DNA from: an uncultured Candidatus Saccharibacteria bacterium
Lineage (GTDB): Bacteria; Patescibacteriota; Minisyncoccia; UBA6257; 02-FULL-45-10c
Reading direction: 5' to 3'
DNA length: 47,337 nucleotides
NCBI GenBank assembly: GCA_964355085.1
Contig: CAYHBW010000004.1
Location: forward strand, 1 to 47,337
Shown here: positions 835 to 38,429 of the stretch, piece by piece
How the letters are laid out: every line of letters starts with the position of its first letter
Position numbering within the stretch: position 1 is the stretch's first letter
Notes under the pieces: generated by a model
Databases searched by the model: none
Told to the model about the DNA's origin: nothing
The model's input: only the letters and a program-made list of their open reading frames with translations
Program-made: the position numbers and the translations under genes

Positions 835-842
835 GAGGGAAA

Positions 843-2662: not shown

Positions 2663-2768
2663 GGGTATACTTAAGTTATAAGTTCAAAGTTTTAAAGATT
2701 AAATCAGAATTAAGCAAAAAAAGAAATCTGACTAATCACTAGCTGCTGATCACTAACAACTAAAATTC

Positions 2769-3347: not shown

Positions 3348-4575
3348 AGTCTTGAATTCAATGGAACAGATCAAGTCGATCTATCACTTCGGGCTCGCCT
3401 GGTTCGGGAACCTCTGGTTTAAAAAGCCATCCAAGAAAATATTCATCATCGGCGTCACCGGCACCAAAGGAAAATCGACGGTAACCGAGCTTATCAATGC
3501 GATTTTGGAGACCGCCGGGAAGAGGGCTGCTGTCAGCTCTTCCGTGCGGTTCAAGATGGATGGTGAAAGCCGTCCGAATTTCACCGGTATGAGCATGCCG
3601 GGAAGATTTTTCCTTCAGAAATTCCTTGCGGAGGCCGTATCCAAGGGGTGCGATTATGCGGTCATAGAAGTCACTTCGCAGGGAGTTCTTCAGCACCGCC
3701 ATCGCTTCGTGGATTTTGACGCGGCTCTTGTCACGAATCTTGAGCCGGAGCATATCGAAGCGCACGGTTCTTTTGAGAATTACCGGGATTCAAAAGTGAA
3801 GTTTTTCCGGGATGTTTCCCTTTATTCAGCCAAATCCCAGAAATTCTTTTTCATAAATTCTGAAACGCGGGATTACGAATTTTTTTCGGCCGCCGCAGCA
3901 GATTTCGGCCGCATTGTTCTTTTCAATAAAAAAGACATGATCAAGGTGAAGATAAAGACGAAGCTTATCGGAGAATTCAACATGGAAAATATCGCCGCTG
4001 CCGTCGCTTTCGCGCGCTCAAGGAATATAGATTGGGATACCATCCGGCAGGCGGTCGAAGCTTTCGACGGAGTGCCAGGAAGATTGGAATTCGTCCAGAA
4101 GACTCCTTTTTCAGTCGTCATTGATTATGCTCATACGCCGGACTCATTGGAAAAAGTCTATCAGACTCTGAAAGGAAAAGGCGGGAAAGGTGACGGGAAA
4201 AAATTGATCTGCGTTCTGGGCGCCGCCGGCGGAGGAAGAGATATGTGGAAGCGCCCGGTTATGGGAGGCATAGCTGAAAAATATTGCGATTCAATAATTC
4301 TTACGAATGAAGATCCTTTTGATGAAGATCCGCAGGAAATAATCGATGAAATAGAATCCGGAATGATCAATTCTGGTAAAAAGAAAGTCAGGAAGATAAT
4401 CGACCGTCGGGAAGCCATCCGGGCGGCGATTCGTTCCGCAAAAAAAGGAGATTCGGTGATAATCACCGGCAAGGGATCGGAGGCCTATATGAGGGTTGCG
4501 GATGGCAGGCAGATTTCCTGGAACGAAAAAGAGATAACGACGAAGATCCTGAACGGAGAAAGGATTGAGGCATAA
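3340..4575 (+). CDS. Mur ligase family protein (MurE-like, lacks the usual N-terminal domain)
   Basis: P-loop GVTGTKGKST, DYAHTPDSL, GAAGGGRD..KRP, TNEDP..EDP. Overlaps the ruvA end by 8 nt; an alternative ATG lies at 3361. Confidence 0.8.
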   Translation: MRKVLNSMEQIKSIYHFGLAWFGNLWFKKPSKKIFIIGVTGTKGKSTVTELINAILETAGKRAAVSSSVRFKMDGESRPNFTGMSMPGRFFLQKFLAEAVSKGCDYAVIEVTSQGVLQHRHRFVDFDAALVTNLEPEHIEAHGSFENYRDSKVKFFRDVSLYSAKSQKFFFINSETRDYEFFSAAAADFGRIVLFNKKDMIKVKIKTKLIGEFNMENIAAAVAFARSRNIDWDTIRQAVEAFDGVPGRLEFVQKTPFSVVIDYAHTPDSLEKVYQTLKGKGGKGDGKKLICVLGAAGGGRDMWKRPVMGGIAEKYCDSIILTNEDPFDEDPQEIIDEIESGMINSGKKKVRKIIDRREAIRAAIRSAKKGDSVIITGKGSEAYMRVADGRQISWNEKEITTKILNGERIEA

Positions 4576-4578
4576 AAA

Positions 4579-4599
4579 ATCCCGCAACGGGATTTTTTT
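4579..4599 (+). terminator. rho-independent terminator after the Mur ligase gene
   Basis: ATCCCG-CAA-CGGGAT hairpin followed by TTTTTT. Confidence 0.7.
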
Positions 4600-4614
4600 G
4601 CTATAATTCAGATA

Positions 4615-5967
4615 ATGCGGCTTACATTTTACGGTGGCGCCGGCGAGGTGACGGGCGCTAATTACATACTGGAAAGCGGAGATACGAAGATCATGATCGA
4701 TTGCGGTCTTCATCAGGGCGCGCACTTTTGCGAGAAGCATAACTGGGAGCCGTTTCCGTATGATCCGAAAACCGTGAATGCGGTTTTTCTGACGCACGCC
4801 CATATCGATCATTCCGGGCGGTTGCCGAAGCTAATGAAGGACGGTTTTCATGGAACGGTCTATTCAACTCCGCCGACAAGGGATTTCGCCAATGTCCTGC
4901 TTCTGGATTCCGAACACATGCTCATTGAAGCGGCGGAGCGCTTCAAGCTGCCTAATCTGTATGGCGTCCGGGAAATTGAGGAGCTGATGGCGCACTGGAA
5001 GGGCTTGAAATATCATGAGTCGGTTCAGATCGGTCCGTTCAAAGTGACGCTTTATAATTCCGGACACATTCTCGGTTCAACCAGCTATCTTATTGAATGC
5101 GAAGGGAAGAAGATCGTATTTTCCGGCGATCTCGGAAACAGTCCGGCTCCGATAATCGGTCCATACGAGAAATTCAAAGAAGAAGATGTCATCGATTATT
5201 GCGTGATTGAGTCCGCCTATGGCAGTCGTTTTCATGAACCGATTCCGGAAGGAGCGATCGAAGATGCCATCGAGGGGGCGGTCAGGGCCGGCGGCGTTCT
5301 GATGATTCCGGCTTTCGCCATGGAGCGTACCCAGAAACTTCTTTTTGAAATAAACGAGCTGATTGAGAACGGAAGAGTCCCGAGAATTCCGATATATCTG
5401 GACAGTCCGCTGGCTATCAAGGTGACGGAGGTGTATAAAAAATATCCTGAATATTTTGACGCGGGAACAAGGAATCTTCTCAAAAACGACAACACCCTTT
5501 TCGAATTTCCCGGTCTTCATAAGACTTTGACATCTGATGAATCAAGGATGATTAATGATGTTCCGGCTCCGAAAGTCATAATCGCCGGTTCCGGAATGTC
5601 GCAGGGCGGACGCATACTTCACCATGAGAAAAGATATCTTCCTGATCCGAAAAGCACGATTCTTTTCATCGGTTATCAGTCGAGCGGAACGCTGGGGCGC
5701 AGGATTCTGGATGGAGAAAAAAATGTCAGAATTCATCATGAAACCGTTCCCGTACGTTGCCGCAAAGTTCAGATCGAAGGTTATTCCGCCCACGCGGATC
5801 AGGGACAGTTGATGGCCTGGCTTGAGCCGATGAGATTTTCTCTTAAGAAAGTTTTTACCGTTCAAGGCGAGGAAGAGGGAAGTGAAATTTTGGCGAAGCG
5901 GATCATAAACGATCTTGCGGTCAAGGCGGAAGCCCCGGCTGTCGGTTCTGTGTATGATTTGACATAG
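4615..5967 (+). CDS. MBL-fold metallo-hydrolase, beta-CASP RNA-processing nuclease family
   Basis: 450 aa. HAHIDHSG motif, beta-CASP region, C-terminal GYSAHAD. TATAAT at 4602-4607 lies only 7 nt before the ATG. Confidence 0.85.
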   Translation: MRLTFYGGAGEVTGANYILESGDTKIMIDCGLHQGAHFCEKHNWEPFPYDPKTVNAVFLTHAHIDHSGRLPKLMKDGFHGTVYSTPPTRDFANVLLLDSEHMLIEAAERFKLPNLYGVREIEELMAHWKGLKYHESVQIGPFKVTLYNSGHILGSTSYLIECEGKKIVFSGDLGNSPAPIIGPYEKFKEEDVIDYCVIESAYGSRFHEPIPEGAIEDAIEGAVRAGGVLMIPAFAMERTQKLLFEINELIENGRVPRIPIYLDSPLAIKVTEVYKKYPEYFDAGTRNLLKNDNTLFEFPGLHKTLTSDESRMINDVPAPKVIIAGSGMSQGGRILHHEKRYLPDPKSTILFIGYQSSGTLGRRILDGEKNVRIHHETVPVRCRKVQIEGYSAHADQGQLMAWLEPMRFSLKKVFTVQGEEEGSEILAKRIINDLAVKAEAPAVGSVYDLT

Positions 5968-6096
5968 TCATTATTATATGCTATTGTATAAAACAATCGA
6001 GGATCACGAGATCCCGGTGCGTACATTAACAGCGAGCTCCGGTAGTTTTCGGAGGGAGCTGAAACCGCTGACAAGTGGAAAAGGAGGGTGATCCAA

Positions 6097-6657
6097 ATGG
6101 GGAACCTTATCAAAACGCCGTACTCGGAAGTGACCGCGACTCTGGAGATGTTGGCACAGCTCGGGGTCGAGTCGGAACATCTCGACCGCCTGCGTTCCAA
6201 GGGGCAGGAGTGGCGCGCAAAGAAAGTGGCAGAGGCGTTGATTTCTGACGAGCAAGCACTCGTCCCCGTCCCCCTGAAGCACGACAAGACCAAGGACGGC
6301 TGGAAACTTCTTGAACACGTGGAGTTCTACGGCCAACCGTTCGACTTCGACCTCGTCGAGTTCCTGAAACCCGGAGAGTCCTATGTCAACGGCGAAGAGA
6401 TGAAGCAAAGAGCCATAAAGCTCAACGCCCATCTCGGCCAAGGACACGCCGAGTATCTGGAAGCCAACCAGGATCGCATCCCCAAAGAATTCCGAGACAA
6501 GTATTACCTCGTCTTCCCGGGAACGGTCTGGCGGGGCTCTGGCGGCGATCGGTACGTCCCGTGCCTCCGCTGGGACGGTGACCGCTGGTGCTTGCACTTC
6601 GGCTGGCTCAGGGTCGGTTGGGACTCGAACGATCGCCTCGTCTGCCTCCGCAAGTAG
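6097..6657 (+). CDS. hypothetical protein; second GC-rich orphan ORF
   Basis: Track ORF 6088-6657; ATG 6097 lies 9 nt after AAGGAGGG. Trp/Cys/Gly-rich C-terminus (WRGSGGDRYVPCLRWDGDRWCLHFGWL). No family recognised. Confidence 0.55.
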   Translation: MGNLIKTPYSEVTATLEMLAQLGVESEHLDRLRSKGQEWRAKKVAEALISDEQALVPVPLKHDKTKDGWKLLEHVEFYGQPFDFDLVEFLKPGESYVNGEEMKQRAIKLNAHLGQGHAEYLEANQDRIPKEFRDKYYLVFPGTVWRGSGGDRYVPCLRWDGDRWCLHFGWLRVGWDSNDRLVCLRK

Positions 6658-6661
6658 CGGG

Positions 6662-6742
6662 TCCGCCAGCTGGCGGATTGGTCCCTTAGCCCGCCGAAGG
6701 CGGGTAAACACAACGCCCCGACTTCGGTCGGGGCGTTTTCTT
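6662..6742 (+). terminator. array of three GC-rich hairpins, the last a rho-independent terminator
   Basis: TCCGCCAGCTGGCGGA (6662-6677), CCCGCC-GAA-GGCGGG (6690-6704), ACGCCCCGAC-TTCG-GTCGGGGCGT (6713-6736) followed by a T-tract. Confidence 0.65.
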
Positions 6743-6806
6743 TTTTATAAAATTATTTATGATAAATTTAAAAAATTAATCGGTTAAATTATGTTATAAT
6801 CTGAAT

Positions 6807-7409
6807 ATGGCAATGAAATTGAGCAGGCGCGATCAGCTTAAATATAAAATCTGCATTTCCGGCGCTGCGGATACCGGTCATTGCGCTGTTGATGCTCCGG
6901 AAAAAGCGGAAGAATTGGGAAGAGAAATCGCCCGCCGGGGAATGGTTCTGGTAACCGGCGCGACAATTGGTATCCCGTATTGGGCCGCCAAAGGCGCGAA
7001 AGAAGAAGGCGGAATGGTGATTGGTCTTTCTCCGGCTGCTTCCGAAGCCGCTCACATAAAAACATACAAACTTCCGACTGACTATCATGATGTGATCGTT
7101 TATACGGGATTTGAATATTCCGGTAGAAATCTGCTTCTCACCCGATCGGCTGATGCGATCATCAATATCTGCGGAAGAATGGGAACTTTGAATGAATTCA
7201 CAATCGCTTTTGAAGACGGAAAACCTATCGGAGTTCTCGAGGGGACAGGCGGAACGGCCGACGAACTGAAGGGCATAGTCTCCAGGATGCACCGCGGTCC
7301 GGGAAGGGTTGTTTATTCCAAGGACATCAAGGAATTGCTGGATAAAATCGTTTTGGAGATTGAAAAGGATAAAAAGAATCATAACGGAAACAGATATGTG
7401 AAGGGCTAG
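6807..7409 (+). CDS. TIGR00725 / SLOG (LOG-like) Rossmann family protein
   Basis: ICISGAA...GMVLVTGATIGIPYWAAKGA...GGMVIGLSP...GRMGTLNEF pattern. Extended -10 TGTTATAAT ends 6 nt before the ATG. Confidence 0.7.
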   Translation: MAMKLSRRDQLKYKICISGAADTGHCAVDAPEKAEELGREIARRGMVLVTGATIGIPYWAAKGAKEEGGMVIGLSPAASEAAHIKTYKLPTDYHDVIVYTGFEYSGRNLLLTRSADAIINICGRMGTLNEFTIAFEDGKPIGVLEGTGGTADELKGIVSRMHRGPGRVVYSKDIKELLDKIVLEIEKDKKNHNGNRYVKG

Positions 7410-7445
7410 ATTAAAGGTGAAAGTCTATGAAGTCAAAAGTCGCAG

Positions 7446-7507
7446 ATGTCATTCTGAACGCAGTGAAGAATCTAATGAGATCCTTCGATCATACCTCAGG
7501 ATGACAT
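7446..7507. repeat. long imperfect palindrome (hairpin) in intergenic spacer
   Basis: ATGTCATTCTGA (7446-7457) pairs with TCAGGATGACAT (7496-7507). Inner stem GAAGAATCT (7465-7473) / AGATCCTTC (7478-7486), loop AATG. Confidence 0.6.
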
Positions 7508-7538
7508 AAAAAATAATAAAATTAAATTATAAAAAACC

Positions 7539-7838
7539 ATGCTTAAAAAAATATTGCAGGCGCTGGGTCTTTCAAAAAAAACTCCGAGAACCGACAAGCC
7601 GGTCGGAGAAGTCACTCATTATTACGGACATCTCGGCGTGGCGATCGTGAAATTCAATCAGGATATGCCGGTCGGAGCGAACCTGGCTTTCCAGGGAGCG
7701 ACGACTGATTTTGAACAGAATCTTGATTCCATGCAGTTCGATCATAAGCCGGTTCAGAAAGCTCCCAAGGGTAAAGAGATCGGCATCAAAGTGAAGAAAA
7801 AAGTCCGGGAAGGAGATGCGGTTTATTTGAATAAATAA
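7539..7838 (+). CDS. small EF-Tu-domain-2-like beta-barrel protein (translation elongation factor-like)
   Basis: 99 aa. The pattern VTHYYGHLGVAIVKF...G..L.F.G...F.Q...SMQ...PV..A..G.E.GIKV is recalled from the family of small EF-like proteins, from memory only. Confidence 0.5.
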   Translation: MLKKILQALGLSKKTPRTDKPVGEVTHYYGHLGVAIVKFNQDMPVGANLAFQGATTDFEQNLDSMQFDHKPVQKAPKGKEIGIKVKKKVREGDAVYLNK

Positions 7839-7839
7839 A

Positions 7840-8298
7840 ATGATGTCTGAATTTTTTCGTCCTGAAAATACGGAGCTTTTCAAACAGCTTCTCCTGGCTC
7901 TTTTTTTGGGGGCGACCATAGGTATCGAGCGGGAAGTCGCCCATAAATCCGCCGGCATGCGGACGCATGCGCTTGTCGCGCTCGGGTCGGCATTATTCAC
8001 GATAATTTCCCGGTCGCTTACCGGTCCGACTATAGATCCGACCCGTATTGCAGCCCAGATTGTGACTGGAATCGGTTTTCTCGGAGCCGGGATGATCGTA
8101 TTCGATCAGTCGAGAGTCAAAGGACTGACGACCGCTGCCGGAGTCTGGACTGCCGCCGCCATCGGAATGGCAGTCGGATTCGATATGAACGCCCTGGCAG
8201 TTTTCGCCTCGATTCTGACAATCCTGGTTTTCGTGGTCCTTTGGCCGGTTGAAAGGAGGTTTGTGAAAAGATTTTCTTCGCGCGAAGACGGAGAATGA
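7840..8298 (+). CDS. MgtC/SapB family membrane protein
   Basis: GIEREVAHKSAGMRTHALVALGSALF signature and four hydrophobic helices. Confidence 0.8.
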   Translation: MMSEFFRPENTELFKQLLLALFLGATIGIEREVAHKSAGMRTHALVALGSALFTIISRSLTGPTIDPTRIAAQIVTGIGFLGAGMIVFDQSRVKGLTTAAGVWTAAAIGMAVGFDMNALAVFASILTILVFVVLWPVERRFVKRFSSREDGE

Positions 8299-9425
8299 TC
8301 AATTTTCTTAAAAACATACTTCAGCCGGCAAGTATGCTCTCCGGAATAATCATCGGGGCGGGAGTTTTCTCCCTCCCTTATGTTTTTTTATCCGCCGGTC
8401 TTGCGACAAGCTTTTTTTATCTCGGTTTTTTCGGATTGATCTATATATTCCTCTATTTCATCTACGCCGACATCATAGTCCGTACGGCCGGCGAGCACCG
8501 CTTTGTCGGTTATGCGGATATATACCTGGGAAAAGCCGGACTTTCAATCTCCCTCCTCATCGGACTTTTACAGCTTTTTTTTGTGATGACGATTTATCTC
8601 ATTCTTGCGCCGAGTTTTTCCAAGCTTTTCATCGGCGGCGATGCCGTTTATCATCTGTTCGCATTCTGGTTGGCGGGATCGGCTCTGATTTTTCTGGACA
8701 GCAGAAAACTGGCATTTTCGGAGTTCCTCATAGTCATAGGGATCGCACTTATAATGGCGCTGATATTTTTCCTGGGATTACCGGCGTTCATTTTTTCCGG
8801 CATTTCTTTCGGTTCCCTTGATTTGTCGAAATTCCTTTCAGTCGGACCGATTCTTTTCGCCCTTTCCGGTAGTCTGGCGGTTCCGGAAATATTCGGTTAT
8901 TTCCGAGACGCTAAAATCCCTCTTTCCTATATGAAAAACTCCCTTGCGCTCGGCGGATTTGTTCCGATTTTGGCATACGGAGGTTTTGTAATGGGGATAA
9001 TCGGTCTTTCCGGAGTTGTCTCCGAAGATTCCGTTTCCGGCCTGATCGGAAATGTGCCGGATATCCTGCTTTGGCTGGTGGGGATTCTCGGAATTTTTTC
9101 GCTTGTGAGTTCCTATATAATTGTCGGTACGAATGTCAGAAAAATAATCCGGCAGGATCTGAAAATGCAGGCATTGGCAGGCGGATCAGCCGCTGTTTTT
9201 CTGCCGATTGCTCTTTATTTCGCCGGTTTCCAGAGTTTTTTGGGTGCGGTTTCGTTCGTCGGAACTTTATTTTTGCCGATGGAGAGCATTCTGCTGATTC
9301 TCATCTGGCTTCAGGTGAATAAAATATCCAAAGTTCCGCCGATGTTCGCCGGCCGATGGACCAGGATCGCTGTTCCGGTGATCTTATTCGTGTTTTTTGT
9401 CAGTCTCTTTTATGCGATACTATAA
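8295..9425 (+). CDS. polytopic membrane protein, amino-acid-transporter-like
   Basis: 376 aa, about 10-11 hydrophobic segments. N-terminal IIGAGVFSLPYVF resembles amino acid permease motifs. ATGA overlap with the mgtC-like gene. Confidence 0.55.
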   Translation: MINFLKNILQPASMLSGIIIGAGVFSLPYVFLSAGLATSFFYLGFFGLIYIFLYFIYADIIVRTAGEHRFVGYADIYLGKAGLSISLLIGLLQLFFVMTIYLILAPSFSKLFIGGDAVYHLFAFWLAGSALIFLDSRKLAFSEFLIVIGIALIMALIFFLGLPAFIFSGISFGSLDLSKFLSVGPILFALSGSLAVPEIFGYFRDAKIPLSYMKNSLALGGFVPILAYGGFVMGIIGLSGVVSEDSVSGLIGNVPDILLWLVGILGIFSLVSSYIIVGTNVRKIIRQDLKMQALAGGSAAVFLPIALYFAGFQSFLGAVSFVGTLFLPMESILLILIWLQVNKISKVPPMFAGRWTRIAVPVILFVFFVSLFYAIL

Positions 9426-10182: not shown

Positions 10183-10223
10183 CCGAAGGATGAGATCGAG
10201 GTTCGATCCCTAGCTAGGATCCA
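10183..10223 (+). pseudogene. tRNA-Arg(CCG)-like 3' half fragment (anticodon loop to 3' end)
   Basis: CCGAAGGATGAGATCGAGGTTCGATCCC aligns with CCGAAGGCTGAGATTGTGGTTCGATTCC of the intact tRNA at 10024-10095. No matching 5' acceptor strand is present. Confidence 0.55.
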
Positions 10224-10299
10224 GATTTGACTTTGGCTTGATTTTCTGTTAATATATTCATCAGTAGTTGATGTTCCTTGAAAAGGAGGCGCGGCAATG
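10221..10299 (+). promoter_or_regulatory. promoter plus conserved 5' leader module, copy 1
   Basis: CCAGATTTGACT, TTGACT 10227-10232, 17-nt spacer, TAATAT 10250-10255. Then ATCAGTAGTTGATGTTCCTTGAAAAGGAG before ATG 10297. Confidence 0.65.
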
Positions 10300-10725: not shown

Positions 10726-10802
10726 CCCAGATTTGACTCTAAGTAAATTTTATCGTAATGTATCAATCAGTAGTTAATGCTCATTGAAAAGGAGATGAAA
10801 TG
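10726..10802 (+). promoter_or_regulatory. promoter plus conserved 5' leader module, copy 2
   Basis: CCCAGATTTGACT, TTGACT 10732-10737, 17-nt spacer, TAATGT 10755-10760. Then ATCAGTAGTTAATGCTCATTGAAAAGGAG before ATG 10800. Confidence 0.65.
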
Positions 10803-21493: not shown

Positions 21494-21838
21494 CTATTTG
21501 ACCCTCTCCAGAACTTTCAGAAAGACAGCGGATTCGTTGCGGGCGAGATCGGCGAGGATTTTCCTGTCCAGTTTCACATTCGCAACTTTGAGCTTATTGA
21601 TGAACTGGCTATAGGTCATTCCGTTCGCTCTGGTAGCTGCATTGATGCGGACATTCCAGAGGGTGCGGTAATCGCGCTTTTTCTGTTTGCGTCCTGCAAA
21701 AGCGTGAGTCCAGGCGTGAAGAAGCGCTTCTTTTGCGGCGCGTTCCTTTGATTTGCGTCCCCAGCGGAATCCTTTGGTGTGCTTAAGGAGTTCGCGGCGC
21801 TTTTTTGTTGCAATTTTACCTCTTTTTACTCTGGACAT
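21494..21838 (-). CDS. rplT: 50S ribosomal protein L20
   Basis: MSRVKRGKIATKKRRELLKHTKGFRWGRK... is a canonical L20 N-terminus. Confidence 0.95.
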   Translation of the reverse strand: MSRVKRGKIATKKRRELLKHTKGFRWGRKSKERAAKEALLHAWTHAFAGRKQKKRDYRTLWNVRINAATRANGMTYSQFINKLKVANVKLDRKILADLARNESAVFLKVLERVK

Positions 21839-21841: not shown

Positions 21842-22015
21842 TTATAGATATTTTTTGAATACTTTTACATCAGCAGTCCCCAAGGCCAACCCTTTGCGCT
21901 TATTGCGGGTCTGTTTGCCGGTGCGCTTTGCGCGAAAATGATCCTGCGCCATCCGTCGACGCATCATTTTCCCGGTCCTGGTGACTCGGAATCTCTTTTT
22001 GAAACTTTTTCTCAT
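21842..22015 (-). CDS. rpmI: 50S ribosomal protein L35 (57 aa, below the ORF-track cutoff)
   Basis: Hand translation: MRKSFKKRFRVTRTGKMMRRRMAQDHFRAKRTGKQTRNKRKGLALGTADVKVFKKYL. The stop lies 3 nt before the rplT start, in the classic infC-rpmI-rplT order. Confidence 0.9.
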   Translation of the reverse strand: MRKSFKKRFRVTRTGKMMRRRMAQDHFRAKRTGKQTRNKRKGLALGTADVKVFKKYL

Positions 22016-22160
22016 ACCAGTTAGTGAATCTGCGGTGCTTATCCGCAGAATCTGACTTGTTTGTTAATTATGTATATTGTTTTTTACTTACTATCTCTTT
22101 AAATGCCGGTCAGCAGAGCGGATAAGGTCAGATTCTAACCGCAGATCTACTACCTAGCAT
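22016..22160 (-). promoter_or_regulatory. structured 5' leader of rpmI-rplT, copy A of a two-copy element
   Basis: The reverse complement aligns end to end with 28958-29099. Helices 22021-22035/22139-22153 and 22047-22056/22127-22136. It ends at the rpmI ATG. Confidence 0.7.
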
Positions 22161-22179
22161 GGATTTATCGTATTGGGAT

Positions 22180-22208
22180 ATATTACACCGTCTTCAGGAA
22201 TTTTACAA
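22180..22208 (-). promoter_or_regulatory. promoter TTGTAA-17-TAATAT for the rpmI leader
   Basis: On the minus strand, TTGTAA is at 22208-22203 and TAATAT at 22185-22180, with a 17-nt spacer. It lies directly after the infC stop. Confidence 0.5.
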
Positions 22209-22211
22209 GGT

Positions 22212-22715
22212 CTATTTCTTGACTATCTTCATATTGAAACCGCGTCCTCCGAACTTTGCTTCAGCTATGACTTTATGCTCCGGATCGATCATTGTCTTGA
22301 CGAATTCCAGAAGTTTCTGCCTGCCCCAGTCTTTATTGGCTTTTTCGCGTCCGCGCATGGCAAGCATGATTTCCACCATGTGCCCCTCTTTCAGGAATTC
22401 ATTGGCTTTTTTGGCTTTTATTTGGAGATCGTGTTCAGCCGCTCTTCCGCTGATGCGCACCTGTTTGAGTTCCTGGGTTTTTTCGCTGGCGCGCTGTTTT
22501 TTCATTTTTTTCTCTTCCTGGTATCGGTATTTGTCATAGCTCATTATTTTACCAACCGGCGGCTTGGCCAGCGGGGCAACTTCAATCAGATCCAATCCTT
22601 TTTCATTAGCTAGCTTCAATGCGTCGGACAAAGACATTACGCCGACATATTCTCCGGCTTCATCGATGATGCGGAGTTCCGGCGCGCTTATTTGGTGGTT
22701 TATCTTATTTATCAT
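22212..22715 (-). CDS. infC: translation initiation factor IF-3
   Basis: 167 aa. INHQISAPELRIIDEAGE..GVMSLSDALKLANEKGLDLIEV and a C-terminal domain. ATG start. Confidence 0.95.
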   Translation of the reverse strand: MINKINHQISAPELRIIDEAGEYVGVMSLSDALKLANEKGLDLIEVAPLAKPPVGKIMSYDKYRYQEEKKMKKQRASEKTQELKQVRISGRAAEHDLQIKAKKANEFLKEGHMVEIMLAMRGREKANKDWGRQKLLEFVKTMIDPEHKVIAEAKFGGRGFNMKIVKK

Positions 22716-23833: not shown

Positions 23834-23841
23834 TAATCTAG

Positions 23842-24215
23842 TGGAGATGGTGGGAGTTGAACCCACATCCGAAAATGTATCTGCCTCAAATCTACGCGCG
23901 TAGCTTGGTCTTGGTTTGTGAAAATGAGCTATAGATCAAGCAAAACGCATCATTTCCATTGTCAGTGAATTTCTCCGCAGTTAGTAGACTTCTGCTACGG
24001 AAGAGTCTGATTAATTACACCGAAGTTCGGCCTACCAGACATGAGCCGTTCGATGGTCCCGCGGCATATAGCGGCGGAACAAGCCAGTTATGCGAAAGCA
24101 AAATCTGGCATTCTGTTGGATAAGTTTGCACTTATTCAGTTTCCCAGTTTAACAAGTTATGGAAGCTTGGCGCGCATTGAAACAGAAAAAATTCCCGTCA
24201 AAGCCCGGCATCCCC
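23842..24215 (-). ncRNA. ssrA: tmRNA (SsrA)
   Basis: 5' GGGGATGCCGGGCTTTGACGGGA..., 3' GGGTTCAACTCCCACCATCTCCA tRNA-like end. Candidate tag ORF from GCA at 24129 to TAA at 24090-24088. Adjacent to smpB. Confidence 0.88.
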
Positions 24216-24262
24216 TTGGTTTAGAATCTAGAATTCAGTATCTAGTATCTAAAATATGAAAT

Positions 24263-24706
24263 TTAATATTTCAATGTTCTGCGAACTTCCCTATCGGTTT
24301 CGCGGCGCTTGATTGTTTCGCGCTTATCCCGCGCTTTCTTGTGGCGGGCGAGTCCGATAGCAAGTTTCATTCTTCGGCCCTTATCATATATCGATAGAGG
24401 CACGATGGTCAATCCTCCTTCTTTGGCTTTGTTCAATAGGTAATTTATCTCCTTTTTATTGAGAAGAAGCCGGCGCGTGCGATCGGGTTTGTATCCGGGG
24501 TCAGTATTATTCGGCTGGTATGGAGGAATCTGGGCATTGAGAAGCTGGGCGCCGTCCGGCTTCACCAATACGAAAGATCCGGTCAGCTGCGCCCCGCCTT
24601 TGCGGACGGATTTTACCTCCTGGCCGGTCAAAGAAATTCCGGCCTCGAAGGTTTCCAATATTTCATAATCAAATCTCGCTTTGCGATTTTCCGACAGTTG
24701 TTTCAT
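24263..24706 (-). CDS. smpB: SsrA-binding protein SmpB
   Basis: 147 aa. NRKARFDYEILETFEAGI.L.G.EVKS.R and a basic C-terminal tail. Confidence 0.95.
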   Translation of the reverse strand: MKQLSENRKARFDYEILETFEAGISLTGQEVKSVRKGGAQLTGSFVLVKPDGAQLLNAQIPPYQPNNTDPGYKPDRTRRLLLNKKEINYLLNKAKEGGLTIVPLSIYDKGRRMKLAIGLARHKKARDKRETIKRRETDREVRRTLKY

Positions 24707-24783
24707 GTCTACATTATATAGGATATCTTGACGCTGACGAATTTTATCAATATATTATTCGTAGTTCATCGGAGGAGCATAAT

Positions 24784-25729: not shown

Positions 25730-27529
25730 ATGATCGCGGACATAAAAAAACTCATAAAACAGACCGCTTCGGCGGAAATAGACATTGAAGTCAGCGCTTC
25801 GGACAAGCCGGAGTTCGGTCATTATTCCACTAATGCGGCTTTTAAATTGGCGCCGATAGTCAGGAAATCTCCTCTTGAAATCGCTAAGGACTTAAGTCAA
25901 AAATTGGGCGAAGAAAAGATTTTTTCAAAAGTCGAAGCAGTTGCGCCCGGATTCATCAATTTTTGGATTTCATCGGCGGCTTTGCAAGGGAGTGTTGCAG
26001 AAATTTTAAAAGAAAATAAAAATTTCGGAAAGTTGAGCGGAGCGAAATCCGCCTCTGGCGGATTAAAAGTTAACCTAGAGTTCGTTTCCGCTAATCCGAC
26101 CGGGCCATTGACCATGGCTAACGGCCGAGGGGGATTTTACGGAACTGCGCTTGCGAATGTTCTGGAAAAAACCGGTCATAAAGTTACACGGGAATATTAC
26201 GTGAATGACGCCGGGAATCAGGTCCGGAAGTTGGCATTAAGTATATTGGCAGAAAAAGGATTCGTGCCTAAGTTTTCCGAGCATTATCAGGGTGGTTATA
26301 TTAAAGAATGGGCAATGTTAGTTAAATTATCAAAAGAATTAGAAAAAAAATTAAAGTTAAATTATAAATTAGGTAAGTCAGAATTTGAAAAAGGAGAAAA
26401 ATATCAAGATGAAAATGCAGAAATTGCACGTTTCTATAATTCGATAGTTAAGCCAATTTATAGAAATCATCTCAAGGATCTCGAATCTATCGGTAAAAAA
26501 ACTACACTGATTGCATTAAAAAGTATAAAAAAATCTCTTCAAAAAGCGGGGATCAGGCATGACAATTGGTTTTCCGAGGATGCGAATCTTCATAAAAAAG
26601 GAGAGCTAAAGAAAGCTTTAGAATTTTTAAAAAATCGAAAAGTAGTTGAAGAAAAAGACGGAGCAACGTGGCTAAAACACCATGAGGCGAAGCCTCAGGA
26701 GTTCGCCCGACCGAATTTACACGGCAAATTCAGTTTAGGGTTGGGCGAAGGGGTTCTTATAAAGTCTGACGGCTTGCCTACTTATTTTCTGGCCGATCTT
26801 GCTTATCACTACAACAAGCTGATAAAGCGGAAATTCGATCTCGCCATCGATATCTGGGGCGCGGATCATCATGGCTATGCGCAAAGGATGAAAAAAGGCG
26901 TGGAAGCGCTCGGATTGAATTCGGAAAGATTGAAAATTCTTATCACGCAGCTGGTCCGGTTGGTCAGCGGCGGGAAAGAAGTCCGCATGTCCAAGCGGAA
27001 AGGGGAATTCATCACCATGGACGATCTTTTGGAAGAAGTCGGGGCGGATGCGGCCAAGTTTTTCTTTTTGATGCATTCATTGGATACGCATATGGATTTT
27101 GATATGGATCTGGCGAAAGAGAAATCCAATAAGAATCCAGTATTCTATGCGCAATATGCGCTCGTAAGATGCAGTAACATCTTACGGAAGTCTAAAGCCC
27201 CGACCAAAGTCGGGGAGCCGACTCTGGTCGGCTTTAAAAATTTAAAATTAGAGTTTTTGACTTCCGAGTCGGAGGTCAGATTGATGCTAGAATTGATGAA
27301 ATTCCCTGATCTGATTACGCAGACAGCGGAAGATTATCAGGTCCATCATCTGACAAAATATGCCGGCGATGTCGCCCGGGCTTTGCACAATTTTTATGAA
27401 AAAGAGAGGGTTGTCGGGCTGGAAGATAAAAAACTTGAGCGGGCCCGATTGGCGCTGGTTTCCGCGACAAAGATTGTTTTGGAAAATCTGTTCGATATTT
27501 TAGGAATCTCAAAACCAAAGAAAATGTAA
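25730..27529 (+). CDS. argS: arginine--tRNA ligase
   Basis: 599 aa. SANPTGPLTMANGRG (HIGH region), HHGY, MSKRKG, C-terminal DALR anticodon-binding region ending in M. Confidence 0.95.
   Translation: MIADIKKLIKQTASAEIDIEVSASDKPEFGHYSTNAAFKLAPIVRKSPLEIAKDLSQKLGEEKIFSKVEAVAPGFINFWISSAALQGSVAEILKENKNFGKLSGAKSASGGLKVNLEFVSANPTGPLTMANGRGGFYGTALANVLEKTGHKVTREYYVNDAGNQVRKLALSILAEKGFVPKFSEHYQGGYIKEWAMLVKLSKELEKKLKLNYKLGKSEFEKGEKYQDENAEIARFYNSIVKPIYRNHLKDLESIGKKTTLIALKSIKKSLQKAGIRHDNWFSEDANLHKKGELKKALEFLKNRKVVEEKDGATWLKHHEAKPQEFARPNLHGKFSLGLGEGVLIKSDGLPTYFLADLAYHYNKLIKRKFDLAIDIWGADHHGYAQRMKKGVEALGLNSERLKILITQLVRLVSGGKEVRMSKRKGEFITMDDLLEEVGADAAKFFFLMHSLDTHMDFDMDLAKEKSNKNPVFYAQYALVRCSNILRKSKAPTKVGEPTLVGFKNLKLEFLTSESEVRLMLELMKFPDLITQTAEDYQVHHLTKYAGDVARALHNFYEKERVVGLEDKKLERARLALVSATKIVLENLFDILGISKPKKM
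27194..27234. repeat. 41-nt double-hairpin palindromic element inside argS (copy 1)
   Basis: CCCCGAC-CAAA-GTCGGGG (27198-27215) and AGCCGAC-TCTG-GTCGGCT (27216-27233). 36/41 identical to 31744-31784. Confidence 0.8.
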
Positions 27530-28610: not shown

Positions 28611-28907
28611 ATGTTGCTGATTCCACGTGATACGGCGCGTAGAGATCATTATGTGAAACACAAAGTGCGTTTTTCAAGATTACAGATTTACATAGCCCAT
28701 AGATTGGCGAGAAGCGGTTTAAGGGAGATATTGAAGGAACGAAAACCAAAAGGGATCGCCGCTCTTTGTAAGGAAATCAGGCTATTATCGCATTATATTC
28801 ATTTATTGAAAAAATCCGAAGGATATTACAAATATCTACGCTCAATACACAAGCATTCCGATTACGAAAGACATTTGAAGGAAAGAACTAATCGCCGCTC
28901 CCGATGA
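28611..28907 (+). CDS. hypothetical basic protein
   Basis: ATG at 28611 (track start TTG 28587). Arg/Lys/His-rich. The terminator hairpin overlaps its 3' end. Confidence 0.4.
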   Translation: MLLIPRDTARRDHYVKHKVRFSRLQIYIAHRLARSGLREILKERKPKGIAALCKEIRLLSHYIHLLKKSEGYYKYLRSIHKHSDYERHLKERTNRRSR

Positions 28908-28917
28908 GCGGTTTTTT
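28895..28917 (+). terminator. rho-independent terminator
   Basis: CCGCTC-CCGAT-GAGCGG followed by TTTTTT. Confidence 0.65.
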
Positions 28918-28919
28918 GT

Positions 28920-28948
28920 TTGAAAATGAACGATTTTTCGCTTAATAT
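28920..28948 (+). promoter_or_regulatory. promoter TTGAAA-17-TAATAT for the ileS leader
   Basis: TTGAAA 28920-28925, 17-nt spacer, TAATAT 28943-28948. Confidence 0.5.
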
Positions 28949-28957
28949 ATAAGAATA

Positions 28958-29099
28958 TGCCAGGTAGTAGATCTGCGGCTAGAATCTCATTTATCCGCGT
29001 TTACTATATGGAATTTAAGTAAAATAGTAATTGTAATTATAAATAGATAATCAATAAATTGAGATTCTGCGGATAAACACCGCAGGCTCACTACATGGT
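28958..29099 (+). promoter_or_regulatory. structured 5' leader of ileS, copy B of a two-copy element
   Basis: Aligns with the reverse complement of 22016-22160. Helices 28964-28978/29080-29094 and 28981-28989/29060-29068. Alternative hairpin 29067-29072/29080-29085. Ends at ATG 29100. Confidence 0.7.
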
Positions 29100-32000
29100 A
29101 TGCTTAGAGGCCTTAAGGAATTCAAATTGCCGGAAATAGAGGAGAGAGTGCTCAAATTCTGGAAAGAAAACAGGATTTTTGAGAAGTCTTTGAAGCTTCG
29201 CGAGAATGCGAAGCCCTTCCGATTTTTTGAAGGTCCGCCGACTGCTAACGGCCGTCCCGGAATTCACCATGTTCTTGGTCGGGCATTTAAAGATGTCATT
29301 CCGCGCTATAAGACAATGCAGGGATATTTGGTCAATCGAAAAGCCGGCTGGGATACTCATGGTTTGCCGGTGGAAATTGAAGTTGAAAAAGAACTCGGCC
29401 TGAAAAATAAACAGGAAATCGAGAAATTCGGAATCGCGGAATTCAATGAAAAAGCCAAATCTTCCGTCTGGAGATATCAGGAAGAATGGGAAAAGCTGAC
29501 TGACCGTATCGGATTCTGGTTGGATATGAAAAATCCGTATGTCACCTATAAGCCGGATTACGTGGAAAGTCTTTGGTGGGTTTTGAAGCAGATTGCAGAC
29601 AGGGATCTTCTCGCTCAGTCATTTAAGATTGTTCCTTATTGCCCTCGCTGTCAGACTCCGCTTTCCAGTCATGAAATGGGACAGCCGGGAGTTTATAAAA
29701 AAGTTAAAGATCCATCCGTATACGTAAAGTTCACCCTTCGACAAGCTAAGGGTAAAAAAAATAAAGCAAAAGAATACCTCTTGGTCTGGACCACCACTCC
29801 GTGGACTTTGCCGTCCAATGTGGCTGTCGCAGTCAATCCGGAATTAAGCTATACGAAATATAAAGTCGGAAAAGATTTTGTCTGGTCATATAATCCTCCG
29901 CCTTCGCCAGAGGCTACGGCGGACAAGTCCTCCGAAAATATTGAGGTGGTGGAAAAGATTTCCGGGAAGAAAATGATCGGTTGGGAATATGAGCCGATGT
30001 TCAAGGTAAAAGGCCCGTGGCTGAAAAACAAGAAGTTTTTTAAAGTTTACGGCGCCGGTTTTGTATCCACTACGGACGGAACAGGATTGGTTCATATTGC
30101 TCCGGCTTTTGGCGAGGATGATATGCAGCTTATTAAAAAAGAGCAGAAAGAATTGGTCGGACAGATCCCAATCACTATTGATGCGCGTGGCATAGTTCAG
30201 GCAGGACTGCCGGGCGCAGGGAGATTTGCCAAGCAGGCGGATAAAGATATCATCGCTCATCTTTTGGATAAAAAAATACTGCTTAAATATGAAGAAATAG
30301 AGCACGATTATCCGTTTTGTTGGAGATGCGGAACGCCTATTTTATACTTCTCCCGCTTTTCCTGGTTCATAGAAATGAGCGGGCTTCGCGACCAGCTTCT
30401 GAAAAATAATGAAAAGATAAATTGGGTTCCGGATCACATTAAAGAGGGGAGATTCGGTGAGTGGCTTCGTGAAATAAAAGATTGGGCGATTTCTCGTGAT
30501 CGCTATTGGGGAACGCCGCTACCGATTTGGCGATGTGGGGATTGTGAGGCGACTAAGGTCGTCGGAAGCTTAAAAGAATTGGACGATAGCCGTTTTTCGG
30601 AAAATAATTTTTATTTTCTCCGTCATGGAGAGTCAGATCATAATTTGACTGATATTATAGCAGCCGGGCCGGAGCGCGGAAAAAATATTTCCAAGCTGAC
30701 CAAGAAAGGCCTTGCGCAAGCGGAAGAAGCCGGAAAAAATATAAAGAAAATGCTCGGGAAAAATAAACTCGATTTCATTTTCGCTTCGCCTTATCAGCGT
30801 ACAAAGCAGACGGCAAAGGCGGTCGCTAAGCAGACGAAAGCGAAATTGATTTTTGATAAAAGGTTGGTTGAAATCGATGCGGGAATTTTTAATTGGAGAG
30901 TGGTCGGAGAGTTCCATAAATTTTTTGAGAATTCTTTGGAGCGCTTCACTAAATCTCCGGCTGGTGGAGAAAATCTGAATGATGTTAAAAAAAGGATGTT
31001 CGGCGCAATTCTGGATATCAATTCCAAATATTCCGGTAAAAATATTCTCATTGTCAGCCATGGCGATCCACTTTGGGTTTTGGAAGGAGCAATGAAGGGA
31101 TTGGATAACGAAGAAATTTTGAATTTGGATTACATTAAAACTGACGGCAAGCCGCGGAAAGTTGAGTTGCATAATTGGCCGTATAATATGAATTGTGAGC
31201 TCGATATTCATCGCCCGTATGTCGATGATCTGCATCTTAAGTGCGGGAAGTGTGATGGCAAAATGACCCGCGTGAAGGAGGTCGCCGATTCTTGGTTTGA
31301 TTCCGGAGCAATGCCGTTTGCGCAATTTCATTATCCATTCGCGCAAGATCTGAAAAATCCTTTGGATATGAATTCGATTGAAAAAACGATTGAATTTCCG
31401 GCTGATTACATCAGCGAGGGAATTGATCAGACCAGGGGATGGTTTTATACTCTTCTAGCCGTGGCCACTGCTTTGGGCTTGGAAAATCCTTACAAAAACG
31501 TGATTACGCTTGGATTAGTTTTAGATAAAAACGGCCAAAAGATGTCCAAGTCAAAGGGAAACGTGGTCAGTCCGTGGGATATGATTCAGAAATACGGCTC
31601 TGATGTTGTCCGCTGGTATTACTACACCATCAATCCGCCGTCTGAATCCAAAAAATTTGACGAGCTGGATCTCGGCAAGATGCTCCGAAAGTTCATAATG
31701 ATAATTTATAACTCTTTCGTTTTTCTGGAGACTTATGGGGATAAAAGCCCCGACCATAGTCGGGGAGTCGACTTGGGTCGACTTCAGAATGTTTTAGATA
31801 GATGGATCTCAGCTAGATTGAATCAGACAATCGAGCAGGCGACGGAAGGATTGGAAAAATACGATGTCGGTTCCGCCGGAAAGGCGCTGGAATCTTTTGC
31901 AGACGATCTTTCCCGATGGTATATCCGCCGTTCCCGTCCGCGCCTGCAGAAGCCGGATGATATGAAGGATTATGCGTCCGCCTCCGCCACTTTGCGGTTC

Positions 32001-32642
32001 TGCCTTTCTGAATTGAGCCGGATGATGGCCCCGTTCACGCCTTTTTTTGCCGATGCTCTTTATCTTTCAGTTTCCGCCGTCAAGGAATCCGTCCATCTTG
32101 AGGATTGGCCGGAAGCGGACAAGAAAGCGGTTGATTTTTCTTTACTCGAAAAAATGGAAGAAGTCCGAAGATTATCCAGCTTGGCTCTGGCGATCCGCGC
32201 TGAAAAAGGAATGAAGGTCAGGCAACCGCTTCAGGCGTTGGAAATAAAATCCAAGGCAATTGATGTTCGCGATGAAGAGCTTTTGGCGATTCTTCGCGAT
32301 GAAGTGAATGTAAAGGAAGTCCGATGGAATTATGAAATGAAAGAAGAATTGGCTTTTGATCTTGTAATAACGCCTGAACTCAAAGAAGAGGGTATTCTCC
32401 GGGAAGTTGTTCGCATGGTTCAAGGACTTCGCCATGATGCAGGTTATGTTCCTTCAGATGCCATCGAGCTTAGGATTGAGGGCCCTAAAGAGCTGGAAAA
32501 CGCCTTAAATGCGCATATGGCGCGTCTTAAGCGGGATGTGGGGGCGAAGTCGGTTGAGCTCAAAAAGAGCGATAAATATGACGCTGAATTGAGCACTAAA
32601 TTTGAAGACCAGCCGCTTTGGGTCGGGGTAAGAAAAATCTGA
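29100..32642 (+). CDS. ileS: isoleucine--tRNA ligase carrying an inserted histidine phosphatase domain
   Basis: 1180 aa. PTANGRPGIHH (HIGH), WTTTPWTLP editing domain, WAISRDRYWGTPLPIW, KMSKSKGN, C-terminal anticodon-binding region. Confidence 0.95.
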   Translation: MLRGLKEFKLPEIEERVLKFWKENRIFEKSLKLRENAKPFRFFEGPPTANGRPGIHHVLGRAFKDVIPRYKTMQGYLVNRKAGWDTHGLPVEIEVEKELGLKNKQEIEKFGIAEFNEKAKSSVWRYQEEWEKLTDRIGFWLDMKNPYVTYKPDYVESLWWVLKQIADRDLLAQSFKIVPYCPRCQTPLSSHEMGQPGVYKKVKDPSVYVKFTLRQAKGKKNKAKEYLLVWTTTPWTLPSNVAVAVNPELSYTKYKVGKDFVWSYNPPPSPEATADKSSENIEVVEKISGKKMIGWEYEPMFKVKGPWLKNKKFFKVYGAGFVSTTDGTGLVHIAPAFGEDDMQLIKKEQKELVGQIPITIDARGIVQAGLPGAGRFAKQADKDIIAHLLDKKILLKYEEIEHDYPFCWRCGTPILYFSRFSWFIEMSGLRDQLLKNNEKINWVPDHIKEGRFGEWLREIKDWAISRDRYWGTPLPIWRCGDCEATKVVGSLKELDDSRFSENNFYFLRHGESDHNLTDIIAAGPERGKNISKLTKKGLAQAEEAGKNIKKMLGKNKLDFIFASPYQRTKQTAKAVAKQTKAKLIFDKRLVEIDAGIFNWRVVGEFHKFFENSLERFTKSPAGGENLNDVKKRMFGAILDINSKYSGKNILIVSHGDPLWVLEGAMKGLDNEEILNLDYIKTDGKPRKVELHNWPYNMNCELDIHRPYVDDLHLKCGKCDGKMTRVKEVADSWFDSGAMPFAQFHYPFAQDLKNPLDMNSIEKTIEFPADYISEGIDQTRGWFYTLLAVATALGLENPYKNVITLGLVLDKNGQKMSKSKGNVVSPWDMIQKYGSDVVRWYYYTINPPSESKKFDELDLGKMLRKFIMIIYNSFVFLETYGDKSPDHSRGVDLGRLQNVLDRWISARLNQTIEQATEGLEKYDVGSAGKALESFADDLSRWYIRRSRPRLQKPDDMKDYASASATLRFCLSELSRMMAPFTPFFADALYLSVSAVKESVHLEDWPEADKKAVDFSLLEKMEEVRRLSSLALAIRAEKGMKVRQPLQALEIKSKAIDVRDEELLAILRDEVNVKEVRWNYEMKEELAFDLVITPELKEEGILREVVRMVQGLRHDAGYVPSDAIELRIEGPKELENALNAHMARLKRDVGAKSVELKKSDKYDAELSTKFEDQPLWVGVRKI
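30585..31200 (+). other. histidine phosphatase (PGAM-like) domain inserted in the IleRS catalytic core
   Basis: FYFLRHGESDHN (RHG), SPYQRTKQTA, EIDAGIF, IVSHGDPLW. It sits between ...VVGSLKELD and DIHRPYVDD, which are only about 13 aa apart in the Thermus IleRS sequence as I recall it. Confidence 0.75.
31744..31784. repeat. 41-nt double-hairpin palindromic element inside ileS (copy 2)
   Basis: CCCCGAC-CATA-GTCGGGG (31748-31765) and AGTCGAC-TTGG-GTCGACT (31766-31783). Confidence 0.8.
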
Positions 32643-33671: not shown

Positions 33672-33748
33672 TTTGGTTGATTAGTTTATTAGTTAATTGG
33701 TTAGTTGGTTTAGTTTCTAATTTACCGACTAACTAATTAACTATTTAC

Positions 33749-38379: not shown

Positions 38380-38429
38380 ATACTCATTATAGCTTTTATT
38401 GCCCGCAAATAAAAAACCCCTAAAAGGGG

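Follow-up and report, generated by a model that had tools for sequence, protein, structure and literature searches.

A small palindromic, putatively mobile element at the start codons of rpmI and ileS in an uncultured Candidatus Saccharibacteria bacterium

The window analyzed here is the whole 47,337-nt stretch of contig CAYHBW010000004.1 (assembly GCA_964355085.1) from an uncultured Candidatus Saccharibacteria bacterium, and it contains two copies of a hairpin-forming element, one directly in front of rpmI and the other directly in front of ileS. The operon composed of infC (22212-22715), rpmI (21842-22015), and rplT (21494-21838) lies on the minus strand, with an infC-rpmI spacer of 196 nt that holds the first copy. 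On the plus strand, the open reading frame (ORF) of ileS (29100-32642, 1180 aa) is preceded by the second copy at 28957-29102. The two copies align over ~147 nt with a mean column identity of 80%, their ends being conserved and their AT-rich middle variable. Within the window, the 5' arm has a 16-mer and the 3' arm a 24-mer that are each confined to these two places (0.13 and 0.00 occurrences expected by chance, respectively). Each copy is predicted to fold into an end-to-end hairpin, with an energy of -45.7 kcal/mol (z -4.6) at rpmI and -40.3 kcal/mol (z -3.6) at ileS. A preliminary description of this DNA had placed the rpmI feature at 22016-22208; the real span runs from 22160 to 22013 with an ATG at each end, and the remainder of the spacer is native. 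The features are as follows.

22013-22160, minus strand: rpmI copy of the element, 148 nt with the ATG at each end counted
22158-22160, minus strand: first ATG (ATG1) of the rpmI copy, the ancestral rpmI start codon; the upstream flank matches relatives up to here
22139-22157, minus strand: 5' terminal inverted repeat CTAGGTAGTAGATCTGCGG of the rpmI copy, pairing with 22017-22035
22127-22137, minus strand: X, 5' strand of the inner helix of the rpmI copy, variable and covarying
22118-22126, minus strand: Y box CTTATCCGC of the rpmI copy, complementary to Y' in an alternative helix that excludes X:X'
22057-22117, minus strand: AT-rich variable central loop of the rpmI copy
22046-22056, minus strand: X' GTCAGATTCTG, 3' strand of the inner helix of the rpmI copy; its final G is also part of Y'
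22038-22046, minus strand: Y' box GCGGATAAG of the rpmI copy, doubling as 5' half and loop of the local 3' hairpin
22017-22035, minus strand: 3' terminal inverted repeat CCGCAGATTCACTAACTGG of the rpmI copy
22013-22015, minus strand: second ATG (ATG2), where rpmI now starts; at the hairpin base its A and U are matched to the U and A of ATG1
22161-22211, minus strand: native infC-rpmI spacer, the 51 nt next to infC, with the -10-like box TGTAATAT; outside the repeat, and aligning with the 51-57-nt spacers of relatives
28957-29102, plus strand: ileS copy of the element, 146 nt with both ATGs; the site is empty in L040, L013, and L012
28957-28959, plus strand: ATG1 of the ileS copy
28960-28978, plus strand: 5' terminal inverted repeat of the ileS copy
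28980-28989, then 28990-28998, plus strand: X, then Y, of the ileS copy
29059-29069 and 29069-29077, plus strand: X' and Y' of the ileS copy
29080-29098, plus strand: 3' terminal inverted repeat of the ileS copy
29100-29102, plus strand: ATG2 of the ileS copy, the ileS start
28894-28948, plus strand: native ileS upstream signals, a terminator-like hairpin at 28894-28912 and a promoter-like TTGAAA-17-TAATAT at 28920-28948; this flank is conserved in L040

Four full copies of the element are known (those at rpmI and ileS and two from other genomes, at loci L005 and L049), together with one half copy. From 5' to 3' the order of parts is ATG1, 5' terminal inverted repeat, X, Y, loop, X', Y', CA, 3' terminal inverted repeat, T, and ATG2. 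The 5' repeat of 19 nt reads C(C/T)AGGTAGTAGATCTGCGG and the 3' repeat follows the pattern CCGCAG..TCACTA..TGG. Such a pair of 19-nt terminal repeats (CCAGGTAGTAGATCTGCGG / CCGCAG(A/G)(T/C)TCACTACCTGG) is a property of transposable elements of the miniature inverted-repeat type (MITEs), and the element ends read CCAGGTAGTAGATCTGCGG...CCGCAGATTCACTACCTGG. Together with the flanking A and U of the ATGs, the repeats form a terminal helix of 22 pairs, 93% of which is paired over the four copies. X is 10-11 nt long and variable, with X' complementary to it; Y reads (C/T)TTATCCGC and Y' reads GCGGATAA(A/G); and the AT-rich loop of ~60 nt is free to vary. At 146-149 nt with both ATGs (~142-145 bp for the element itself) and without coding capacity, it again resembles a MITE. 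The one ORF present is an upstream ORF (uORF) from ATG1 that follows from the repeat sequence, runs for 10 codons in three of the four copies (at rpmI, MLGSRSAVRI then stop) and reaches 21 codons at ileS. The two ATGs lie 143-146 nt apart and out of frame with each other.

Homologues of IF3 assign the organism to the Patescibacteria/Parcubacteria, and orthologous loci of relatives were fetched and compared, at rpmI for five and at ileS for three. At rpmI the site is empty in 5/5, namely L040 (IF3 96% identical), L048 (95%), L011 (92%), L012 (82%), and L013 (82%); named IF3 matches, at ~70% identity, belong to Harrisonbacteria. The infC-rpmI spacer of the five relatives is 51-57 nt long; their rpmI flanks match the window as far as the ATG, and the match picks up again at codon 2 with nothing in between. 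The empty site in L040 reads ...ataatatatcccaatacgataaacatATGcaaaaaagtttcaaaaagag, and the filled site in the window reads ...gtaatatatcccaatacgataaatccATG[ctaggtagtag...cactaactggtATG]agaaaaagtttcaaaaagag, with the insert in brackets. The ileS site is likewise empty in 3/3 relatives (L040, L013, and L012), reading cgcttaatatataagaatATGttgaag in L040 and cgcttaatatataagaatATG[ccaggtag...ctacatggtATG]cttagag in the window. At both window loci ~145 nt separate the start codon from codon 2, and the insert closes with a second ATG. Including two loci described below, empty orthologous sites are found in relatives for all four loci (rpmI, ileS, a cysteine desulfurase gene, and a gene for a 119-aa membrane protein). 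On these alignments the element is an insertion rather than an ancestral leader. The preliminary description had itself named conservation of the element in orthologous rpmI leaders as a point on which its reading could fall, and there its idea of L20 feedback does not hold. Of its three ideas, the copying of a promoter-plus-UTR module between genes comes closest: what is copied is the ~145-nt hairpin, whereas the promoter and upstream flank are native to each gene, since the flank up to the ATG aligns with relatives that have no element.

Further copies were sought by one exact-motif scan each of the GTDB species representatives and the JGI metagenomes, and Logan and ENA contigs were reached via proteins. 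Scanning the GTDB representatives with the 3'-hairpin motif gave one true match, L005 in the Patescibacteria metagenome-assembled genome (MAG) REEB16, where the element precedes a cysteine desulfurase gene (...ttacaatatatatATG[ccagg...cctggtATG]aagcgc); this site is empty in the nearest orthologue, L047 (67%). A 21-mer of the 5' arm matched only unrelated GC-rich coding sequences in the JGI metagenomes, and two motif scans of viral contigs returned nothing real. Among Hainich groundwater contigs from the window's own population, L041 is identical to the window. Two low-coverage contigs, L042 and L044, stop mid-element; L043 runs from infC through the 5' half of the rpmI copy and then passes into a different 3' end (...GCGGATAAACACCGCAGAATCACTACCTAGAATG), with the 119-aa membrane-protein gene behind it; and L045 starts mid-element with the same 3' end and the same gene. 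These breaks and joins are how a repeat behaves in low-coverage assembly, and they reveal a third site, so that the window's population has at least three: rpmI, ileS, and the membrane-protein gene. The site at the orthologue of this last gene is empty in L046 (87% identical), where the start lies 4 nt after the upstream stop, and in L050 (75%). It is filled in L049 (83%, another species, from a different project), which reads ...caatagttATG[ccaggtag...gcctggtATG]gaaactgac with the element at 1837-1984. The left flank in L049 is the end of a 174-aa gene, and the three genes (one a sigma factor) that lie between that gene and the 119-aa orthologue in L050 are missing. L049 is thus either a real recombinant or deletion between two copies or an assembly chimera, as far as the contig can tell; judged by position, the junction on its left coincides with the start codon of the gene that follows, a 67-aa ORF. 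The exact L35 protein of the window was not on record among the proteins searched, probably because gene callers overlook L35 behind the element.

All junctions seen are at an ATG start codon, and all copies are in sense orientation to the gene. The window contains 342 TATG sites, 32 of them intergenic and 14 at start codons. Under a crude null model in which only intergenic and start-codon TATG sites are tolerated, the probability that a tolerated site is a start codon is 14/46 = 0.30, which gives ~0.002 for five independent sites with orientation uncounted. ATG flanks the element on both sides in 4/4 full copies (TATG/TATG in three and CATG/TATG at rpmI), and the empty sites read (T)ATG once. 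As the junction sequences stand, this pattern is equally compatible with a target-site duplication and with an element that carries its own terminal ATG. An extended target motif, ATAANNATATG, was considered and rejected: it occurs three times in the window, one of them occupied, and the other flanks fit it poorly, so that (T)ATG alone was kept as the target.

The element has terminal inverted repeats and a short flanking repeat but no ORF; it occurs in several copies, its sites are empty in relatives, and assemblies break or are rearranged at it. Taken together, these features lead us to regard it as probably a ~142-145-bp non-autonomous mobile element of the MITE type, present in low copy number, flanked by (T)ATG direct repeats, and inserted at start codons in a few groundwater Patescibacteria. 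Several copies per genome and empty orthologous sites are again what is seen for MITEs. Several observations weigh against this interpretation. The flanking repeat is imperfect at rpmI (CATG/TATG), and the inverted repeats vary at their tips (CCAGG/CTAGG and CCTGG/CATGG/ACTGG/CCTAG), as transposase substrates seldom do. An autonomous partner, with a transposase between ends of this kind, was looked for in the window and in ~450 kb of fetched loci and not found, so that mobility is deduced from the pattern of presence and absence alone. Of the four full copies and one half copy known, pattern scans contributed one from the GTDB representatives and none from the JGI metagenomes. Additionally, both AUGs have their A and U paired in the equilibrium fold as predicted (probability unpaired 0.04-0.2), neither a Shine-Dalgarno (SD) sequence nor a -10 box precedes ATG2 in the window copies, and the model does not explain the expression of the essential genes concerned. 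Finally, the four-way change in L049 described below could reflect four binding sites coevolving with a protein.

The fold itself is under selective constraint. The preliminary description had reported compensatory changes in an inner helix, and its strands are confirmed at rpmI (AGAATCTGAC at 22127-22136 on the minus strand, with the complement at 22047-22056) and at ileS (AGAATCTCA at 28981-28989 and TGAGATTCT at 29060-29068). The swap between them is real, alignment columns 32/110 reading G-C at rpmI against C-G at ileS, and the outer helix is indeed better paired at rpmI, where columns 15/136 and 16/135 hold A-U and U-A instead of the A/C and U-G of ileS. The local hairpin it noted, CTGCGG-ATAAGCA-CCGCAG, is present and 19 nt long, although one C had been counted twice. 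For the terminal-plus-X structure over the four full copies, 93.9% of cells pair, and five pairs carry double changes. In a shuffle control 2-3/500 reach the observed pairing values, and slid registers give zero double changes. X:X' contains four covarying pairs and in L005 is almost wholly different (TAGCATTTAA / TTAAATGCTG) yet fully paired, and the outer pair of Y:Y' covaries, being C-G in rpmI and U-A elsewhere.

Because the linkers on both sides have zero nt, X:X' and Y:Y' are mutually exclusive alternatives, and this geometry excludes a pseudoknot combining them. Their predicted energies are nearly equal in the three copies tested (-47.6/-46.2, -42.1/-41.4, and -55.6/-57.8 kcal/mol), and the state of the terminal helix, and thus of the AUGs, is the same whichever of the two forms. 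Furthermore, the element contains CTGCGG twice and CCGC(AG) twice, so that the long-range pairings (1:4 and 2:3) and the local hairpins (1:2 and 3:4) are all possible. In L049 each CTGCGG has become CTGCGA and each CCGC has become TCGC, and as a result of these four coordinated substitutions its terminal helix, Y:Y', 3' hairpin, and 5' hairpin all remain paired. Such a change is hard to explain otherwise than by supposing that several alternative pairings matter or that one protein reads four sites. Sense and antisense RNA fold with similar energies (-45.7/-41.3, -40.3/-38.5, and -54.0/-55.3 kcal/mol), which rules out a strand-specific structure and means that energy alone does not separate constraint at the level of RNA from constraint at the level of single-stranded DNA.

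How a gene might survive such an insertion is suggested by its host context. Most window genes have no SD sequence, and many have TATAAT, then 6-7 nt, then ATG (e.g., 4600-4614, 6792-6806, 24707-24721, and 38380-38394). TATAAT-N6-ATG is the architecture of leaderless mRNAs, and its frequency here suggests that these are widespread in this organism. The promoter-like sequence of ileS stops 8 nt short of ATG1, and the ancestral ileS mRNA would therefore have been leaderless or nearly so. This SD-poor, leaderless-like context partly explains the start-codon niche. We propose that an insertion would leave the old ATG upstream as ATG1 and supply or duplicate ATG2, from which the gene would now be read; an ATG duplicated or supplied at a start site in this way would keep the ORF intact. 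Lying downstream of the native promoter, the element would be transcribed as a 5' UTR, and its end-to-end folding would bring ATG2 to the foot of the hairpin, beside the place formerly held by ATG1, which in the predicted fold pairs with the UAU overlapping ATG2. Self-folding may thereby allow leaderless (ileS and cysteine desulfurase), short-leader (rpmI), or translationally coupled (119-aa membrane protein) initiation to continue, and these would be the classes of gene in which the element is tolerated. Such a role would account for the pairing kept by compensatory changes, and in single-stranded or cruciform DNA these hairpins may also have a part in transposition.

A bolder form of this proposal, which we put forward tentatively, is that the element represents a class of selfish elements specialized for start codons in streamlined genomes that are poor in SD sequences and rich in leaderless mRNAs. 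Such elements may target (T)ATG or survive only there, with the ATG regenerated and the ribosome handed from the old to the new AUG across the foot of the hairpin. The insertion would then be skipped at initiation, by an initiating or a terminating-reinitiating ribosome, and the four-way covariation could reflect a refolding pathway in which local hairpins form during uORF translation and give way to the long-range helix at other times. A position at essential start codons would also shield the element from deletion.

Among rival explanations, the one that fares best, though we think it unlikely, is that of a single-strand DNA element of the HUH/Y1 type (palindrome-associated, as in the IS200/IS605 family, or REPIN-like), inserting 3' of TATG without duplication and carrying its own terminal TATG, with the CTGCGG...CCGC hairpins as the sites of transposase recognition. 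It would suit the fixed orientation of every junction relative to an asymmetric (T)ATG target, the invariable NATG of the right end, and the empty sites, which fit the exact restoration of a gene upon excision. As in IS200/IS605 elements, subterminal hairpins with like stems lie at both ends (CTGCGG...CCGC at the 5' end, CTGCGG-ATAARCA-CCGCAG at the 3' end), and L049 changes all four of their strands (G to A twice and C to T twice) as if one protein reads both. However, the IS200/IS605-type family is defined by the absence of terminal inverted repeats and shows a lagging-strand bias, whereas here 19-nt inverted repeats reach the tips of the element, and the window copies lie on opposite strands of one replichore (the GC skew is positive throughout the window), a weak point with n = 2. 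The 5' hairpin is also weak, with 4-5 bp and a 16-17-nt loop, and neither a Y1 transposase nor any other Pfam transposase domain was found among the 25 window ORFs tested.

Less probable still is a mobile cis-regulatory RNA switch, whose bistable fold (X:X' vs Y:Y', or long-range vs local) would tune the downstream gene, perhaps via the short uORF. The near-isoenergetic inner helices in the three copies tested, the covariation in both of them, the preservation of an attenuator-like 1:2/3:4 vs 1:4/2:3 logic through the four-way change, the stop at codon 11 of the uORF in three of the four copies, and the uniform sense orientation would all accord with it. Set against these are downstream genes that are functionally unrelated (L35/L20, IleRS, cysteine desulfurase, and a small membrane protein), close relatives that manage without the element, AUGs indifferent to which inner helix forms, no U-tract after the 3' hairpin, a uORF length that is not conserved, and the near-equal folding of sense and antisense. 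A general sensor of translational status, the second idea of the preliminary description, has the bistable fold as its sole support.

Its first idea, an L20-binding autoregulatory leader of rpmI-rplT that mimics 23S rRNA and was extended to ileS, is most improbable. L20-dependent rpmI-rplT leaders are known in other bacteria, and the element does lie directly upstream of rpmI-rplT. Yet the rpmI leaders of all five close relatives lack it, its boundaries coincide with an insertion at ATG, and it stands before unrelated genes in three genomes, including those for cysteine desulfurase and a small membrane protein. Moreover, the three copies tested (rpmI, ileS, and L049) gave no match to L20_leader or another relevant Rfam model at E<=10, the sub-threshold matches being to generic long-hairpin and snoRNA models only; the window itself contains no 23S rRNA. 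Nothing links the element specifically to L20. Finally, we give almost no credence to an ancient leader precisely lost in relatives, which needs five independent exact deletions at rpmI that each spare one ATG, or to an assembly artefact, since separate projects have assembled the element independently (in the window, in Hainich contigs of ENA, in an NCBI MAG, and in the ANAN16 scaffold of ENA), even if L043 and possibly L049 are chimeric or rearranged at the element.

Several other candidates were rejected. A T-box, riboswitch, tRNA-like RNA, or attenuator is not indicated: the whole window has no Rfam match at the gathering score, the 3' hairpin is followed by no U-tract, there is no SD, and the alternative pairings that exist leave the AUG region unchanged. 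No internal outward promoter with consensus, such as would regenerate a leaderless mRNA, is present in either window copy; a 9/12 match lies at the extreme 5' end of the ileS copy, and no -10 box is found 6-8 nt before ATG2. The last 36 nt could encode an N-terminal extension, LRI(N/S)TA(D/G/E)SL(P/T/H)(G/R)M, which is stop-free and has an in-frame ATG in L005, but the window copies have an upstream stop and no start, so that it is not conserved. The conserved GTTRRRY/RYYYAAC cores of an integron attC are missing, and the flanking genes are syntenic housekeeping genes. A translational bypass element (as in T4 gene 60 or the mitochondrial byps) would match in its AUG/AUG triplets, but instead of a stop CCA or CUA follows the first of them, and a gap of 143-146 nt separates the two.

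The element shares with the Correia elements of Neisseria and with ERIC a length of ~100-160 bp, terminal inverted repeats, short flanking direct repeats, the lack of an ORF, and presence or absence between close strains; these elements are cotranscribed with their neighbors as a long hairpin able to affect the transcript (PMC10969869). Correia elements differ in that TA is duplicated and hundreds of copies occupy varied intergenic positions in either orientation (PMC10969869), whereas the element described here is low-copy (at least three per genome), has its junctions at ATG start codons, lies in sense orientation, and leaves a second ATG behind. The term "start codon" is absent from a 2024 review of prokaryotic MITEs (PMC10969869), and our search of the literature on start-codon-targeting MITEs or on leaderless translation in Patescibacteria found nothing specific. 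Rickettsia palindromic elements are likewise small, palindromic, and selfish and persist inside essential genes of a reduced genome with the gene product intact. They are translated in frame as an extra peptide; the present element, in contrast, is full of stops, out of frame, and placed before codon 2, which implies tolerance at initiation and not through protein folding. Start-codon siting sets it apart from all three of these families.

With IS200/IS605-derived elements and REPINs it has in common oriented insertion by a short specific sequence, like-stem hairpins near both ends, and compensatory or concerted stem evolution, but those lack terminal inverted repeats and show replication-strand bias. 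A different kind of parallel is offered by hairpins that ribosomes pass. In T4 genes 38 and 25 hairpins shorten the effective distance in the initiation region, the leader of cauliflower mosaic virus (CaMV) is shunted, and T4 gene 60 is bypassed. All of these have, like the element, a stable stem-loop between ribosome entry and the start or landing codon, with identical triplets at its feet. In those systems, however, the hairpin stands between SD and AUG, or a coding gap of <=50 nt has a stop after the take-off codon, whereas here a 145-nt hairpin of about -45 kcal/mol (predicted, and known from sequence alone) lies between two AUGs with no SD or adjacent stop. The L20_leader (RF00558) and other ribosomal-protein leaders share with the element only the position upstream of rpmI-rplT and show no sequence or structure match to it.

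A second palindrome was seen inside ileS itself. A 59-nt double palindrome, GCCCCGAC-nnnn-GTCGGGG then GCCGAC-nnnn-GTCGGC, occurs at 27194-27252 and 31744-31802, inside the coding regions of argS and ileS, respectively (78% identical). It is read in different frames in the two genes and sits at linker positions where the sequence of relatives differs or is shorter. It appears to be another small palindromic element, one that, as with those of Rickettsia, was inserted in frame. The IleRS protein (29100-32642) additionally carries a His_Phos_1 histidine-phosphatase domain (residues 504-676, E 7e-31) inside its class I catalytic domain, and the same match is on record for IleRS of L012 and L013. 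ArgRS (25730-27529) has 599 aa vs 527 aa in the closest relative, L040, with extra segments of ~45 and ~23 residues in the catalytic region.

Elsewhere in the window, heptads containing TAG (TAGTATCTAGAATTTAGTAG... or, on the opposite strand, CTAA repeats) recur in intergenic runs at 24215-24254, 33672-33716, 44599-44638, and 44951-45004, flanking the tmRNA gene, hup (HU), and a Trp/Tyr-tRNA synthetase gene; these runs may act as stop punctuation in several frames or as a repeated binding motif. The tmRNA gene (23839-24215, minus strand, 131.5 bits) is directly downstream of smpB (24263-24706). A 68-nt direct repeat that ends AAAAGGAG lies downstream of a tRNA cluster at 10221-10288 and 10727-10794 (78% identical), and its second copy carries a clear SD sequence, a rarity in the window, before the ORF at 10800. 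In L011, the relative at 92%, positions 1-8556 form a mobile-looking island beside the infC operon that is missing from the window and encodes a serine recombinase, Prim-Pol/AAA_25, a BglII-like endonuclease with an N6/N4 methylase, and a helix-turn-helix (HTH) protein with an M78 peptidase.

For those working with such genomes, the practical consequence is that the element breaks and chimerizes metagenome assemblies at gene starts (L042-L045 and possibly L049). It also removes a false lead, as there is no L20/IleRS coregulation here. The start-codon niche and the four-way substitution together offer a compact natural data set on the constraints acting on alternative nucleic-acid folds. In these bacteria of the Candidate Phyla Radiation, the element occupies the start codons of essential genes (ileS and rpmI-rplT) with no SD, -10 box, or in-frame read-through to explain their expression. 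Either ribosomes initiate efficiently at an AUG half-buried at the base of a hairpin of -40 to -55 kcal/mol or the RNA is processed or refolded, and in both cases the finding bears on leaderless and SD-less initiation in unculturable organisms.

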